54,841 bases of DNA from an uncultured Planctomycetota bacterium (GTDB lineage: Bacteria; Planctomycetota; J058; JACQDU01): assembly GCA_964648345.1 (NCBI GenBank), contig CAZYLP010000001.1:1-54841 (forward strand), in the 5' to 3' direction. The position numbers and the translations under genes were made by a program. This document shows, piece after piece, positions 1 through 54,841 of this stretch (the first letter of the stretch is position 1; each line of letters opens with the position of its first letter). The notes beneath the pieces were generated by a model. That model saw nothing but the letters and a program-made list of their open reading frames with translations. It was not told the origin of the DNA and did no database searches.

Positions 1-1748
1 CGCAGCCGCTCTCGAACGAGGACGGCACGGTCTGGATCGTCTTCAACGGCGAGATCTACAACTTCCAGTCGCTCAAAGAGGAGCTCGAGAAGAAAGGCCA
101 CCGCTTCCACTCGCGGTCGGACACCGAGACGATCGTCCACCTCTACGAGGAGATGGGCGAGCGCGTCGTCGAGCGCCTCCGCGGCATGTTCGCCTTCGCG
201 ATCTGGGACAAGAAGAAGCAGCAGCTCTTCTTGGCCCGCGACCGGATCGGGAAGAAGCCCCTCCACTACTGGACCGACGGCCAGACCCTGCGTTTCGGCA
301 GTGAGATCAAGGCGATCCTCGAAGACCCGAGCGTCCCCCGCGAGCCAGACCTCCAGGCGCTCTCTCACTATTTGACGCTCGGCTATGTCCCCTCGCCCGA
401 GACAGCCTTCAAGAACATACGGAAGCTCCCGCCCGCGCACACGCTCACCGTCTCGCGCGACGGGCAGCTCAGGATCAAGCGCTACTGGGAGCTCTCCATG
501 GGCCCCAAGCGCACGGACAGGCTCGAGCGGATCCAGGAGGAGATCCTCGAGACGCTCGACGAAGCGACGAAGCTCCGCATGATCTCGGACGTGCCGCTCG
601 GCGCGTTCCTCTCGGGCGGGATCGACTCCTCGGCCGTCGTCGCCTCCATGCAGCGCGCGTCGAGCACGCCCGTCCGCACCTTCGCGATCGGCTTCGAGGA
701 GAAGGCGTGGGACGAGTCCGAGTACGCGCGACTCGTCGCCGAGCACGTGAAGACGAACCACACCGAGCTCGTCCTGAAGCCGGAGTCGCTCGAGGGGATC
801 GAGAAGCTCTCCTGGCACTACAACGAGCCCTTCGCCGACAGCTCGCTCCTCCCGACGAGCGCGGTCTCGAAGCTCGCGCGCTCACAGGTGACCGTCGCGC
901 TCTCGGGGGACGGGGGCGACGAGGTCTTCTGCGGCTACGGCCGCTACACGGGGATTCGCGTCGAGGAACGGCTCGACGGGATGTCCGCCCCCCTCCGCGC
1001 TCTCGCGAAGAACCGCTCGGTGGTCGGCCTCCTCTATGGTCTCGGCGTGGGGGCGAGGAGCGGCCTCACCGACCACCTCCTCGCGGCGCGCTGGCGCAGC
1101 CGGCTCCCGATGATCGAGCGCTACTTCTGCCAGGTCGAGCCGACCTCGCCCGACACGCGCCGGCGCGTCATGGCCCAGGACTACGTGCGTTCTCTCGCCG
1201 GCTTCGACTCGCAGGCGCTCCTCCGCGAGCGGATCGAGAAGTCGGACGGCGAGAACTGGACCGAGAAGTGCGCGCACGCGGACTTCACGACCTACCTCCC
1301 CGACGACATCTGCGTGAAGGTGGACGTGGCGAGCATGGCCTACGGCCTCGAGACGCGCGCGCCGCTCCTCGATCACATCCTCGTCGAGAAGGTCGCGCGC
1401 CTCCCCTTCGCGCTCAAGATGCGCGGGCTCACGGGGAAGTGGGTCCTCCGCGAGGCCCTCCGGCAGCGGCTCCCCGAGACGACGCTCACCCGCAAGAAGA
1501 TGGGCTTCGGCGTCCCGATCGAGGTCTGGTTCAAGGGCGGGTTCTCGAAGTTATTGGAAGACGTGCTGCTCGATAAGCGAGCCCGCGAGCGCGGCGTCCT
1601 CGACCCTCAAGGCGTGCGCGGGCTGATCGACGAGCACAAGGCGCGCGGCGGGCAGCAGTACGCTCTCTTCACGCTCCTCATGCTCGAGGTGTGGTTCCGG
1701 CAGTGGATCGATGTGGCGAAGCCGGTGCCGCAGCGGGTGAGCGTCTGA
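1..1748 (+). CDS. Asparagine synthase (glutamine-hydrolysing) family amidotransferase, copy 1; 5' end lies outside the window
   Basis: The frame is open from nt 3 (QPLSNEDGTVWIVFNGEIYNF..HSRSDTETIVHLYEE, the glutamine amidotransferase part). It continues into track ORF 153..1748. PP-loop LSGGIDSS is present. The product is about 70% identical to the minus-strand copy at 53297..54841. Confidence 0.9.
   Translation, partial: QPLSNEDGTVWIVFNGEIYNFQSLKEELEKKGHRFHSRSDTETIVHLYEEMGERVVERLRGMFAFAIWDKKKQQLFLARDRIGKKPLHYWTDGQTLRFGSEIKAILEDPSVPREPDLQALSHYLTLGYVPSPETAFKNIRKLPPAHTLTVSRDGQLRIKRYWELSMGPKRTDRLERIQEEILETLDEATKLRMISDVPLGAFLSGGIDSSAVVASMQRASSTPVRTFAIGFEEKAWDESEYARLVAEHVKTNHTELVLKPESLEGIEKLSWHYNEPFADSSLLPTSAVSKLARSQVTVALSGDGGDEVFCGYGRYTGIRVEERLDGMSAPLRALAKNRSVVGLLYGLGVGARSGLTDHLLAARWRSRLPMIERYFCQVEPTSPDTRRRVMAQDYVRSLAGFDSQALLRERIEKSDGENWTEKCAHADFTTYLPDDICVKVDVASMAYGLETRAPLLDHILVEKVARLPFALKMRGLTGKWVLREALRQRLPETTLTRKKMGFGVPIEVWFKGGFSKLLEDVLLDKRARERGVLDPQGVRGLIDEHKARGGQQYALFTLLMLEVWFRQWIDVAKPVPQRVSV
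1281..1330. repeat. 50-nt perfect inverted repeat, left arm (inside asparagine synthase copy 1)
   Basis: gacttcacgacctacctccccgacgacatctgcgtgaaggtggacgtggc is the exact reverse complement of 53703..53752. It encodes DFTTYLPDDICVKVDVA in both paralogs. Confidence 0.8.
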
Positions 1749-53296: not shown

Positions 53297-54841
53297 CTAG
53301 GCGAGCGCGGCGACCGGCGCGTCCACGAACTTCTTGAACCAGAGCTCCATCATGAGGAGCGCGAAGAGCACGTTCTGCTGCCCGCCACGCCGCTCGTGCT
53401 CCTCGAGGAGAGCCTCGACGCCCTTCGCATCGAAGATCCCGCGCTCTCTCGCGCGCGCGTCGAGCAGCACCTGGCGGAGGAGCTTCGCGAAGCCGCCCTT
53501 GAACCAGTGGTCGATCGGGACGCCGAAGCCCATCTTCCGCCGCTCGAGGATCGGCCGCGGGAGCCGGGCGCGGAGCGCCTTCTTGAGCGCGACCTTACCG
53601 CGGAGGCCCTGCATCTTGAGCGCGAAGGGGAGGCGCGCGACCTTCTCGACGAGGACGTGGTCGAGGAGCGGCGCCCGCGTCTCGAGGCCGTAGGCCATGG
53701 AGGCCACGTCCACCTTCACGCAGATGTCGTCGGGGAGGTAGGTCGTGAAGTCGGCGTGGGCGCACTTCTCCGTCCACGTCTCGCCGTCCGACGCCTTGAT
53801 CCTTGCGCGGAGCCACTCGCGCGCGTCGTGTCCCCCGAGGGCGCGCGCGAAGCCGTCCGACCAGAGCCTCTCCTTCACGCGCGGAGCGGTCACTTCGAGG
53901 GCAGGGAAGTAACGGTCCCAGATCGGCGCGCCGCGTCGCCAGCGCGCGAAGCCGAGGTGGTCTCCGAGCCGCATGGAGCGGCCGACCCCGAGCATGTTCA
54001 AGACGGGCGCCCACGGGCGGAGGTAGAGCACGTCGCGGATCAGGCGCGGAAGGCGCTCGAGGCCCTCCTCGAGGTTCATGCCGGCGTAGCGCTCGTAACC
54101 GAGGAACACCTCGTCGCCCCCGTCCCCCGAGAGGGCGACGGTCACGCGCGAGCGCGCGAGCTTCGAGACGGCGCTCGTCGGGAGGAGCGACGGGTCGGCG
54201 AAGGGCTCGCCGTAGTGCCACGCGAGCCGCTCGATCCCGTCGAGCGAGTCCGGGCGGAGCGTGAGCTCGGTGTGGTCCGTCTGGACGTGCTGCGCGACGA
54301 GGCGCGCGTAGGCGGACTCGTCGTAGGCCTTCTCCTCGAAGCCGATCGAGAAGGTCTTCACCGCCCCCTGGTCGGCCCGCTTCATGGAGGCGACGACCGC
54401 GGAGGAGTCGACGCCGCCCGAGAGGAACGCGCCGAGCGGCACGTCCGAGATCAGACGGAGGCGCGTCGCCTCGTCGAGGGTCTCGAGGATCTCCTCCTCG
54501 ACCTTCGCCGCCTCGGCCGCGCCCTCGACGTGGCGCTTGGGGGACATCTTGAGCTCCCAGTAGCGGCGGACACGCGGCTCGCCGTCGCGGCCGATCGTGA
54601 GCGTGTGAGCCGGCGGGAGCTTCTCGACCCCCTTGAAGGCGGTGAGCGGAGAGGGGACGTACCCGTACGTCATGTAGAGGTCGAGCGCGCGCGGCTCGGC
54701 CTCTCGCGGCACGGAGGGGTCCTCGAGGATCGACTTGATCTCCGAGCCGAAGCGGAGCGTCTCGTCCGTGCGCCAGAAGTAGAGCGGCTTCTTTCCGACG
54801 CGATCGCGGGCGAGGAAGAGCTCGTCTCTCCGCGCGTCCCA
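53297..54841 (-). CDS. Asparagine synthase (glutamine-hydrolysing) family amidotransferase, copy 2; 5' end lies outside the window
   Basis: The frame stays open beyond the track start 54712 to the window edge (WDARRDELFLARDRVGKKPLYFW..). PP-loop LSGGVDSS is present. Confidence 0.9.
   Translation of the reverse strand, partial: WDARRDELFLARDRVGKKPLYFWRTDETLRFGSEIKSILEDPSVPREAEPRALDLYMTYGYVPSPLTAFKGVEKLPPAHTLTIGRDGEPRVRRYWELKMSPKRHVEGAAEAAKVEEEILETLDEATRLRLISDVPLGAFLSGGVDSSAVVASMKRADQGAVKTFSIGFEEKAYDESAYARLVAQHVQTDHTELTLRPDSLDGIERLAWHYGEPFADPSLLPTSAVSKLARSRVTVALSGDGGDEVFLGYERYAGMNLEEGLERLPRLIRDVLYLRPWAPVLNMLGVGRSMRLGDHLGFARWRRGAPIWDRYFPALEVTAPRVKERLWSDGFARALGGHDAREWLRARIKASDGETWTEKCAHADFTTYLPDDICVKVDVASMAYGLETRAPLLDHVLVEKVARLPFALKMQGLRGKVALKKALRARLPRPILERRKMGFGVPIDHWFKGGFAKLLRQVLLDARARERGIFDAKGVEALLEEHERRGGQQNVLFALLMMELWFKKFVDAPVAALA
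53703..53752. repeat. 50-nt perfect inverted repeat, right arm
   Basis: Exact reverse complement of 1281..1330. Confidence 0.8.

Follow-up and report, generated by a model that had tools for sequence, protein, structure and literature searches.

We analysed a 54,841-nt contig from an uncultured Planctomycetota bacterium (CAZYLP010000001.1 of assembly GCA_964648345.1), and the whole of this stretch is called the window below. Our preferred reading, which we hold with moderate confidence, is that the window is a composite surface-glycan locus of the O-antigen or exopolysaccharide type, specifying an ATP-binding cassette (ABC)-exported, heavily O-methylated glycan to which multiplied systems of the three-component type would add further sugars and acyl groups outside the membrane. 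An initial annotation, made from the sequence alone, had described a methyltransferase (MT)-rich glycan locus with cytoplasmic Leloir glycosyltransferases (GTs), an exporter, polyprenyl-phosphate-type GT2 enzymes, GT-C membrane proteins and SGNH proteins, and our analysis supports that description. Given cytoplasmic GTs, a Wzm/Wzt pair, polyprenyl-phosphate GT2 enzymes, GT-Cs and SGNH proteins in one place, assembly partly in the cytoplasm and partly outside it is the natural reading. Such a locus combines two known strategies, and what is new here is scale and architecture, not a new category of system: 13 MT domains, three modifier-fused GT2s resembling donor synthases, four to five GT-Cs from families not yet characterised, SGNH proteins with membrane parts of neither the AT3 nor the MBOAT type, among them one that has a transmembrane (TM) module in common with the GT-Cs, and no recognisable GtrA/MATE flippase.

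Methyltransferases, exporter and sugar-precursor genes

At a GC content of 67–76% (overall ~71%) raw lists of open reading frames (ORFs) are useless for gene calling; genes were called with log-odds scores of codon usage, for which the clearest ORFs of the window served as the training set. This model returned 43 non-overlapping genes and one pseudogene that cover the window almost without gaps (Table 1), and the only gap in the gene cover (33551-34452) is occupied by the pseudogene. All ORFs listed in the initial annotation were recovered. We scanned all 43 products against Pfam at the curated gathering cut-offs, and also used NCBIfam equivalog models; the Pfam annotation upheld the glycan-locus content. 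We considered and rejected a natural-product glycoside or glycolipid cluster, since none of the 43 products is a polyketide synthase, a nonribosomal peptide synthetase or an acyl-carrier protein by Pfam.

The 13 intact MT domains of the initial annotation were all confirmed. Each scores above its Pfam gathering cut-off and each carries the glycine-rich S-adenosylmethionine (SAM) motif I (e.g. VLDVGVGTG, LELGPG, AVDVGANVG), with variants such as LELGPG in g2 and g3, EFGSMTG in the TylF-type g7 and DVGANVG in the FkbM-type g38; a general lack of SAM-binding motifs, for which the initial annotation had allowed, was thus not found. MT domains are carried by 13 of the 43 genes, corresponding to a binomial tail of 1e-7 to 3e-16 if 1–5% of genes carry such a domain, a background frequency assumed for the analysis. 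In g37 (N-terminal) and g41 (C-terminal) the MT domain is fused to a GT2 domain. The MT part of g21 stands, while its earlier description as C-methyltransferase-like derives solely from an N-terminal CxxC...CxxC pattern (C7, C10, C43, C46) and finds no Pfam Methyltransf_13/14 match; the architecture, which includes a C-terminal extension of 147 aa, is reminiscent of NDP-hexose C-methyltransferases. When isolated, this extension, the C-terminal extension of g4 and the N-terminal extension of g3 had no Pfam match. The decayed MT copy noticed earlier proved by tblastn to be a frameshifted, g3-like pseudogene on the minus strand, with the g3-like stretch at about 33191-34294.

As initially annotated, the window encodes a single Wzm/Wzt exporter: there is exactly one ABC_tran/ABC2_membrane pair, g28/g29, with both members above the Pfam cut-offs and their genes overlapping by 4 nt. 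The best NCBIfam models for g28 are galactan-export Wzt and TagH, both below cut-off. Its C-terminal domain matches no Pfam family, Wzt_C included, yet is 75% conserved in the one close relative that a metagenome scan with Wzt returned, on a 3-kb contig (L008). Neither a Wzx flippase nor a Wzy polymerase was matched by Pfam among the 43 proteins, although the match-free g42 and g32 could hide one. Chain building would fall to conventional GTs, of which g26 served as a control for the GT2 fusions described below: in the PDB it matches PcManGT, chondroitin synthase and TarP/TarS-type enzymes best, and not DPMS.

The precursor genes most likely represent a heptose branch and a 6-deoxy-sugar branch, an assignment by family similarity in which all equivalog models stay below cut-off. 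The g7-g15 operon encodes an HldE-like protein, a GmhA-like protein, HAD- and kinase-like candidates, a split transketolase, a zinc-dependent alcohol dehydrogenase and two MTs. The matches of g8 to the NCBIfam HldE and rfaE domain I/II models are significant but all below cut-off. The presence of g12-g14 (12446-15269) within this heptose-like operon could reflect sedoheptulose-7-phosphate supply or a branched or extended sugar.

Putative donor synthases and extracytoplasmic enzymes

Two polyprenol-phosphate-type GT2 fusions had been counted initially; by best PDB matches there are three (g18, g37 and g41). For all three, Pyrococcus DPMS and ArnC are the top solved relatives, joined by GtrB for g41, with a best PDB E-value of 1.1e-5 (DPMS, ArnC) for the g18-family GT2. 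These GT2 domains therefore look like polyprenyl-phosphate-sugar synthases, in contrast to the control g26 with its chain-building matches. Each donor-synthase-like GT2 is fused to a modifying domain, in the order MT-GT2 in g37 and GT2-MT in g41, and to a Rieske-type domain in g18. When g41 was searched against plasmids by tblastn, only the GT2 part was matched (27–33% identity) and no record contained the fusion.

The g18 protein is the most unusual of the three. Its Rieske ligands, C250-x-H252...C269-x2-H272, are invariant in three homologues, as is a D59-x2-H62-x4-H67 motif that lies within a ~200-aa stretch N-terminal to the Rieske domain. The D-x2-H-x4-H spacing is that of the iron ligands of Rieske oxygenases, whose catalytic domain sits C-terminal to the Rieske domain; relative to these enzymes the domain order of g18 is reversed. 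Residues 1-215 have no Pfam match. Among 5.8 billion clustered proteins we found only two relatives of g18 (L001 3975-5900 and L003 4532-6388), and a scan of the GTDB representative genomes returned no relative of either this family or the g33/g35 family. A literature search, which was not exhaustive, found no description of a Rieske-GT2 fusion or of an MT-fused polyprenyl-phosphate sugar synthase.

Of the four to five GT-C proteins proposed initially, four are supported (g19, g31, g33 and g35), while g42 had no match in Pfam, NCBIfam or PDB sequences, or against profiles A3 and A5. The paralogues g33 and g35 had appeared to be orphans in a word-indexed protein search, a view overturned by exhaustive HMMER searches, which found 2975 relatives (113 at E<=1e-30), mostly of ~800 aa and aligned to residues 240-1014 of the query. 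As single sequences the two fall short of the Pfam PMT_2 cut-off of 26.1 bits (g35, 21.1 bits; g33, 18.6 bits), but among the 37 aligned members of their family 23 reach E <= 0.001 with PMT_2 (best 5e-11). In the 37-member alignment D336, P340, Y347, D425 (PFSDAxxW), R453, R572 and R791 are invariant. From this alignment AlphaFold predicted g35 with a pLDDT of 82.7, and the model is confident over residues 220-1014. Its ~30 top Foldseek matches in the PDB are GT-Cs at a probability of 0.84–1.0, with one low-probability transporter among them, although TM-scores are low (0.16–0.24; best E 2.9e-4); they include AglB, Pmt4, Pmt1/2, STT3, PglB, EmbB/C, AftA, ArnT and ALG3/9. These models and matches point to an uncharacterised PMT_2-related family of ~3000 members, with a predicted GT-C fold for g35. 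In the g35 model D425 follows a TM helix, and it may be a catalytic acidic residue in an extracytoplasmic loop near the start of the core.

For g19, a structural model from six homologues (pLDDT 69.7, pTM 0.73) gave Foldseek hits whose top 10 are all GT-Cs (AftA at 5.8e-6, STT3, DPY19, ALG9), with probabilities below 0.2 beyond these; at a probability of 1.0 the g19 and g35 models match GT-C structures only. By profile comparison, g31 appears to be a distant relative of the GT-C family core of g33 and g35. PDB sequence searches with g35, g19, g31, g42 and the A3 profile gave nothing useful, and thin-profile hhalign comparisons of A1 with g19, g31 and g42 gave no informative match. The GT-Cs are encoded together with synthases: g19 adjoins g18, and g33 and g35 lie near g37 and g41, a linkage that is repeated in three related metagenome contigs (L003, L004 and L070).

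Both g33 and g35 contain a beta-rich extracytoplasmic module of ~95 aa (aa 255-355 of g35, at 42238-42540, and 37340-37650 in g33) with the pattern EDGxxLGPxH...SSSDGTDPRTNGRxY, which includes the invariant D336, P340 and Y347. In other proteins it occurs as a single copy or as 3–6 tandem copies, as judged from HMMER matches in multiple stretches. This module, the N-terminal TM modules and the C-terminus of g35 have no Pfam match when isolated; the ~95-aa module may be an undescribed carbohydrate-binding module (CBM).

Two of the three SGNH proteins proposed initially, g34 and g39, score above Pfam cut-offs, while g20 is sub-threshold yet retains the block I serine and DxxH. An N-terminal module of 4–6 TM helices, modelled at low confidence, is common to g33 (36584-37288), g35 (41476-42180) and the SGNH protein g39 (47611-48000). 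In L004 (886-1443) the same module is attached to the SGNH protein only; a 114-aa minus-strand gene call there looks spurious, because the TM module lies in frame upstream of the called SGNH start. The acylation proposed initially is plausible from the SGNH proteins, but no acyl-donor enzyme (MBOAT, AT3) came to light in the window.

By family membership g16 is a candidate flippase for a lipid-linked sugar. In L001 a single gene separates the g18 homologue from the 72% homologue of g16 that follows it, and in L072 a g19-like GT-C is preceded by a g16-like gene. GtrA and MATE flippases were not matched by any window protein, which leaves g16 and the small, match-free TM protein g32.

Table 1. 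Genes called in the window, with positions, assignments and supporting matches
Feature	Position	Strand	Assignment	Evidence and remarks
g1	3..1748	+	AsnB-like glutamine amidotransferase	5'-truncated at contig end; Pfam Asn_synthase 334 bits
g2	1678..2787	-	MT, g2/g3 family	Methyltransf_23 and Methyltransf_11 above cut-off; motif LELGPG; 50% identity to g3
g3	2784..4001	-	MT	Methyltransf_11 54.9 bits; homologues 55% in L004, 43% in L003
g4	4091..5350	+	MT	Methyltransf_11 86 bits; N-terminal Trm112p-type zinc ribbon; 2 predicted C-terminal TM helices
g5	5347..6735	+	GT4, cytoplasmic Leloir type	Glycos_transf_1 133 bits, Glyco_transf_4
g6	6748..7761	-	NDP-sugar 4,6-dehydratase	GDP_Man_Dehyd 180 bits; dTDP-glucose 4,6-dehydratase model 206 bits, below cut-off; 79% homologue in L003
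g7	7794..8711	+	TylF-type O-methyltransferase	TylF 71 bits
g8	8722..10281	+	Nucleotidyltransferase and PfkB kinase, HldE-like	Pfam; reversed domain order
g9	10303..10866	+	SIS-domain, GmhA-like sedoheptulose-7-P isomerase	SIS_2; gmhA models 69-77 bits, below cut-off
g10	10859..11491	+	Candidate HAD-like phosphatase	DFDNT motif by eye only; no Pfam/NCBIfam match
g11	11488..12480	+	Candidate APH/choline-kinase-like kinase	Motifs by eye only; no family match
g12+g13	12446..14223	+	Split transketolase	Transketolase_N 155 bits (g12); Transket_pyr, Transketolase_C (g13)
g14	14220..15269	+	Zinc-dependent alcohol dehydrogenase	ADH_zinc_N, ADH_N
g15	15266..15934	+	MT	Methyltransf_31 55 bits; motif ILDVGCGKA
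g16	15918..17063	-	Nine-TM LPG_synthase_TM ('flippase-like') protein	PF03706 78 bits; TIGR00374 weak
g17	17133..17942	+	MT	Pfam; partner of g19 in relatives
g18	17929..19782	+	DxxHxxxxH domain, Rieske [2Fe-2S] domain, GT2	Pfam Rieske 34 bits, Glycos_transf_2; best PDB DPMS, ArnC
g19	19803..22361	+	Predicted GT-C-fold membrane protein, 852 aa	AF2 model and Foldseek; no Pfam or other sequence-family match
g20	22370..23461	-	SGNH-like, N-terminal TM anchor	Lipase_GDSL_2 26.5 bits, cut-off 32.9; GGS and DxxH; 29% homologue in L003
g21	23492..24655	-	MT	Methyltransf_23 83 bits
g22	24652..25518	-	RmlD-like NDP-4-keto-sugar reductase	RmlD_sub_bind 96 bits
g23	25539..26219	+	MT	Methyltransf_25 and Methyltransf_11
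g24	26216..27199	+	GT2, weak match	Glycos_transf_2 29.9 bits; 29% identity to g26
g25	27225..28295	+	SDR-type NDP-sugar epimerase or dehydratase	Epimerase 119 bits
g26	28292..29269	+	Conventional Leloir GT2	Glycos_transf_2 101 bits
g27	29254..30936	-	560-aa protein, divergent from wzt	Faint Glyco_transf_4 match, E 0.004; 69% homologue beside Wzt homologue in L008
g28	30981..32255	+	Wzt ABC ATPase	ABC_tran 76 bits; 184-aa C-terminal extension
g29	32252..33172	+	Wzm ABC-2 permease	ABC2_membrane 38.9 bits
Pseudogene	~33176-34294	-	g3-type MT pseudogene	tblastn with g3: 43% over 390 aa, frame changes and in-frame stop
g31	34453..36210	+	12-TM protein	hhalign versus A3 (g33/g35 profile) 90.7%, E 1.2e-6; local hmmsearch 33 bits
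g32	36207..36587	+	126 aa, 3-4 TM helices	Translationally coupled between g31 and g33; no family match
g33	36584..39634	+	Predicted GT-C, 1016 aa	N-terminal TM add-on, beta module, PMT_2-like core, C-terminal beta domain; 55% identity to g35
g34	39644..41407	-	Membrane-anchored SGNH/AlgX-like	Lipase_GDSL_2 42.6 bits; GDS and DxxH
g35	41476..44532	+	Predicted GT-C, 1018 aa, g33 paralogue	Family PMT_2 matches, AF2 model, Foldseek
g36	44504..45274	-	MT	Methyltransf_11 73 bits; 73% homologue in L004
g37	45318..46790	+	MT and GT2 fusion	Pfam; best PDB DPMS 8.5e-11, ArnC; 81% homologue in L004 GT-C operon
g38	46787..47611	+	FkbM-family MT	Methyltransf_21 77 bits; 63% homologue in L004
g39	47611..49434	+	SGNH/AlgX-like	ALGX 35.6 bits; GDS and DxxH; N-terminus 35-36% identical to g33 and g35
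g40	49450..50385	-	MT, g4 paralogue	Methyltransf_11 76 bits
g41	50378..51694	-	GT2 and MT fusion	Pfam; PDB DPMS 7.6e-18, ArnC, GtrB; 82% homologue in L004
g42	51691..53292	-	533-aa polytopic membrane protein, GT-C candidate	At least 8 predicted TM helices
g43	53297..54841	-	AsnB-like amidotransferase, inverted paralogue of g1	Truncated at contig end; Asn_synthase 322 bits

Pathway model and likeness to known systems

In the pathway that we propose, nucleotide sugars would be made in the cytoplasm by a heptose-type branch (g8-g11, possibly fed by g12/g13) and a 6-deoxy-sugar branch (the g6 dehydratase, the g22 reductase and g25). From these, g5, g24, g26 and perhaps g27 would build a polymer linked to polyprenyl diphosphate, which the stand-alone MTs would O-methylate; the extended C-terminal domain of Wzt may then read a terminal modification, and g29/g28 would export the chain. 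In parallel, g18, g37 and g41 would load single sugars on polyprenyl phosphate, and these lipid-linked donors would be flipped, with g16 as the candidate flippase. Outside the membrane g19, g31, g33, g35 and perhaps g42 would transfer the sugars to the exported glycan, and the membrane-anchored SGNH proteins g20, g34 and g39 would attach or cleave O-acyl groups. The locus would illustrate to what extent ABC export of a cytoplasmically assembled chain can be stacked with periplasmic decoration from lipid-linked single sugars.

A more specific version of this scheme is put forward only tentatively. The MT domains of g37 and g41 and the Rieske-type domain of g18 might act, at the cytoplasmic face, on a sugar that is still attached to polyprenyl phosphate; dedicated GT-Cs would then transfer the methylated or oxidised sugars, once flipped, to the exported polymer, and the multiplied GT-C and SGNH paralogues with their common N-terminal TM module would form a periplasmic tailoring assembly. 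If true, this would be a general route by which an already exported glycan, out of reach of SAM, could receive SAM-dependent methyl marks.

The initial annotation could not match the combination to a characterised pathway, a view that we revise: it maps onto ABC-dependent O-polysaccharide synthesis together with three-component glycosylation (PMC11127046) and arabinogalactan logic. The three-component scheme, which couples the synthase of a lipid-phosphate sugar to a flippase and a GT-C, is known for Wzy-dependent O-antigens and lately also for ABC-dependent O-polysaccharides of Klebsiella and Citrobacter (PMC11127046). In these systems (GtrA-GtrB-Gtr* of Shigella and Salmonella, galactose addition in Klebsiella, ORF12-15 of Citrobacter youngae O1/O2) the GT-C likewise acts on the finished polymer outside the membrane, and they too occur in Wzm/Wzt loci; the GT-C may carry a beta-rich CBM-like domain, and both CBM domains on GT-C enzymes and Wzt CBMs that read terminal caps are established (PMC11127046). 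The window differs in that the set is multiplied (three synthase-like GT2s and four to five GT-Cs), that its synthases are fused to MT or Rieske-type domains, that only an LPG_synthase_TM protein and small TM proteins take the place of a detectable GtrA/MATE flippase, and that its GT-Cs, from families not yet characterised, have additional TM and beta modules.

In mycobacterial arabinogalactan and lipoarabinomannan assembly a galactan or mannan is made in the cytoplasm, exported by a Wzm/Wzt-type transporter and elongated in the periplasm by the GT-Cs of the Emb and Aft groups, with decaprenyl-phosphate sugars as donors. It shares with our model a cytoplasmic start, ABC-2 export (the galactan-export Wzt model being the best, if sub-threshold, NCBIfam match of g28) and extension by a number of large GT-C paralogues that end in beta domains, and mycobacterial AftA, EmbB and EmbC are among the fold matches of the window GT-Cs. 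Unlike the mycobacterial loci, the window lacks a UbiA-type DPPR synthase and DprE1/E2, and donors would come from the DPMS-like GT2s; its relatives appear diderm, and methylation would be far heavier.

Methyl caps and MT-GT fusions have precedents in E. coli O8/O9a WbdD with its Wzt-CBM (PMC3482155), P. aeruginosa common polysaccharide antigen PA5457/PA5459 (PMC3560663) and Geobacillus WsaE (PMC2943079). These methyl-capped ABC-dependent O-antigens and S-layer glycans likewise involve Wzm/Wzt, a Wzt C-terminal extension, MTs within the locus and MT-GT2 fusions, but they have 1–3 MTs, chiefly for the terminal cap, compared with the 13 MT domains of the window. Furthermore, the GT2 parts of the window fusions resemble polyprenyl-phosphate sugar synthases, unlike the chain-extending rhamnosyl and mannosyl transferases of the methyl-capped loci, and the Wzt C-terminal domain, as described above, sets the window apart. 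We found no comparably MT-rich ABC-dependent locus in the literature, in a search that was not exhaustive. O-acetylation of the OafA/OafB and AlgX/AlgJ types similarly employs membrane-anchored SGNH/AlgX-like domains with GDS and DxxH inside a polysaccharide locus; in the window, the membrane parts of the SGNH proteins are neither AT3 nor MBOAT (no Pfam match), no separate acyl-donor enzyme accompanies them, and the N-terminal part of g39 is homologous to the g33/g35 GT-C add-on.

Heavily methylated glycans are hydrophobic and glycosidase-resistant, and such loci may therefore matter for the envelope properties of uncultured soil bacteria. For bacterial glycobiology we flag the ~3000-member PMT_2-related GT-C family and the widespread ~95-aa beta module without a Pfam model, as well as the MT-GT2 fusions and the Rieske-GT2 fusion, which is nearly unique and whose action on lipid-linked sugars can be tested in vitro.

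Related contigs, alternative readings and contig structure

Comparison with related metagenome contigs showed a mosaic of modules. The g17-g19 pair occurs alone, the MT-rich g33-g41 block is a recurrent operon, and g27 and g28 stay adjacent. The pair is seen in L007 (JGI 3300049255, a 108-kb contig), where only g17 (84%) and g19 (61%) are represented (9240-12643), between Ser/Thr kinases, an ECF sigma factor and type I citrate synthase. The g17 homologue is directly upstream of the g19 homologue there, as a free-standing two-gene unit, so that a partner GT2 is not always nearby; in L003 it lies upstream of g18-g19. L003 (11.8 kb, GC 0.68) encodes homologues of g6 (79%), an SGNH protein, g17 (72%), g18 (66%) and g19 (52%), together with a GT2-only copy and a g3-type MT, while L001 (15.9 kb retrieved) encodes an MBOAT, DUF1574, g18 (77%), an unrelated 822-aa membrane protein, g16 (72%) and then a GspD-like secretin. 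L004, L005 and L070 (GC 0.69–0.71) share a same-strand operon for an SGNH protein, a GT-C (52% to g33), an MT-GT2 (81% to g37), an FkbM-family MT (63%) and two further GT-Cs, tightly spaced in L004 and L070; L004 has, in addition, g36 (73%), g41 (82%) and a g3-type MT (55%). In L004 and L070 the block adjoins amino-sugar genes, and neither of these 14–15 kb contigs has a Wzm/Wzt pair or heptose genes. L008 (3 kb) has homologues of g27 (69%) and g28 (75%) as a divergent pair, and the conservation of g28 extends to its C-terminal domain. More distant g19-family GT-Cs are found beside Wzm/Wzt in L071 (8.3 kb) and downstream of a g16-like gene in L072 (9.1 kb).

The contigs of relatives (L001 10213-15900; L007 1371-2714) also encode a GspD-like secretin, many Ser/Thr kinases and a type I (hexameric) citrate synthase; from the secretin and the citrate synthase, the lineage of the closest relatives is probably diderm. 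An FHA protein weakly similar to myxobacterial GltG is present as well, and by these genes the relatives are possibly Myxococcota-like.

These data bear directly on the claim of the initial annotation that the window forms one pathway. Its glycan content stands, but co-inheritance as a single pathway is not shown, since the relatives carry separable modules, and the opposite outcome envisaged by that annotation, a juxtaposition of several independently inherited clusters, is in part what L007, L001 and L004/L070 display. Several observations count against a composite locus with one product. The modules separate in relatives, with the g17-g19 pair alone in L007 and the g18/g16 module with an MBOAT in L001. 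The ~18 transcription units lie on both strands and GC3, the GC content at third codon positions, dips over g16-g28, which is not like one co-evolved operon. Acyl-donor partners of the SGNH proteins, whether MBOAT or AT3, did not turn up in the window, g37 and g41 have no predicted TM helices, the flippase role of g16 is a family label alone, and the Wzt C-terminal domain fits no known CBM family in Pfam. Nor did Pfam reveal an initiating phosphoglycosyltransferase, a ligase or an outer-membrane export component in the window, both ends of which are truncated. In many O-antigen systems the initiating transferase and the ligase or outer-membrane export genes are encoded elsewhere.

The separability of the modules makes it possible, though we think it the weaker case, that the window is a glycan 'island' of side-by-side, independently inherited modules that serve at least two glycoconjugates, for example an ABC-exported O-polysaccharide and the decoration of an envelope polymer made elsewhere. 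The modules would be the heptose/6-deoxy-sugar backbone with Wzm/Wzt, the g16-g20 Rieske-GT2/GT-C set and the g31-g41 MT-rich GT-C set, and we give this reading its weight because the modules demonstrably travel apart: g17 and g19 sit alone among kinase and housekeeping genes in L007, L001 combines g18 and g16 with an MBOAT, DUF1574, an unrelated membrane protein and a secretin, and the g33-g41 block of L004/L070 lies beside amino-sugar genes with no exporter or heptose genes. The spread of GC3 along the window (0.86–0.98) and the many divergent transcription units point the same way. By Pfam, however, all 43 genes are glycan-related, with nothing unrelated between the modules; homologues of g6 and of the g3-type MT accompany the g17-g19 module in L003, which ties 'left' to 'centre' genes, and a distant g19-family GT-C adjoins Wzm/Wzt in L071. 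Moreover, the related contigs are short, so that the absence of partner genes on them is weak evidence. Protein glycosylation we regard as unlikely; here the PMT_2-like GT-Cs would be protein O-glycosyl or oligosaccharyl transferases, and proteins of an S-layer or of the envelope at large would receive methylated sugars or glycans, much as in ABC-dependent S-layer pathways. S-layer glycan loci do join Wzm/Wzt, the MT-GT fusion WsaE, methyl caps and an AsnB homologue (PMC2943079), the best Foldseek matches of g35 are AglB, Pmt4, Pmt1-Pmt2 and STT3, and family members match Pfam PMT_2. Polysaccharide-acting EmbB, EmbC, AftA and ArnT, however, reach similar E-values and TM-scores, and the acceptor type can thus not be read from the fold; in addition, neither a gene for an S-layer or target protein nor a Wzy_C transferase of the WsaB/PglL type was detected by Pfam in the window, and the relatives look diderm.

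That the window, which is a whole metagenome contig, is a chimera joining glycan genes of different strains or species is very improbable. Both of its ends lie inside inverted paralogous AsnB genes and its GC content varies (0.67–0.76), but codon usage is coherent enough for a single model to call every gene, and independent contigs confirm the local orders g27-g28 (L008), g17-g18-g19 (L003) and g37-g38 (L004). The paralogues are only 41–66% identical, and this argues for real, old duplications and against collapsed repeats. Returning to the composite surface-glycan locus, its growth would have involved such duplications (g33/g35, g34/g39, g2/g3/pseudogene, g4/g40 and g1/g43) together with the recruitment of separable modules.

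No tRNA genes or Rfam families were found in the window, and exact database look-ups with its proteins gave no match. GC3 is 0.86–0.91 in g16-g22, g24, g27 and g28 (15918-30936) versus 0.92–0.98 in nearly all flanking genes, which hints at a different history or expression level for the central modules g16-g28. For g1, the best NCBIfam model is the XrtA/PEP-CTERM amidotransferase, at 575 bits below its cut-off of 817. The g4/g40 and g1/g43 pairs (55% and 66% identity, respectively) stand in inverted arrangement at opposite ends of the contig, and the inverted repeats I1, I2, I4 and I5 link the two ends. At the nucleotide level, 204-1704 pairs with 53329-54841 (AsnB-like) and 4197-4988 with 49530-50318 (g4/g40-type MT) at 71–89% complementarity. 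The position of both contig ends within the AsnB paralogues may explain why the assembly went no further.

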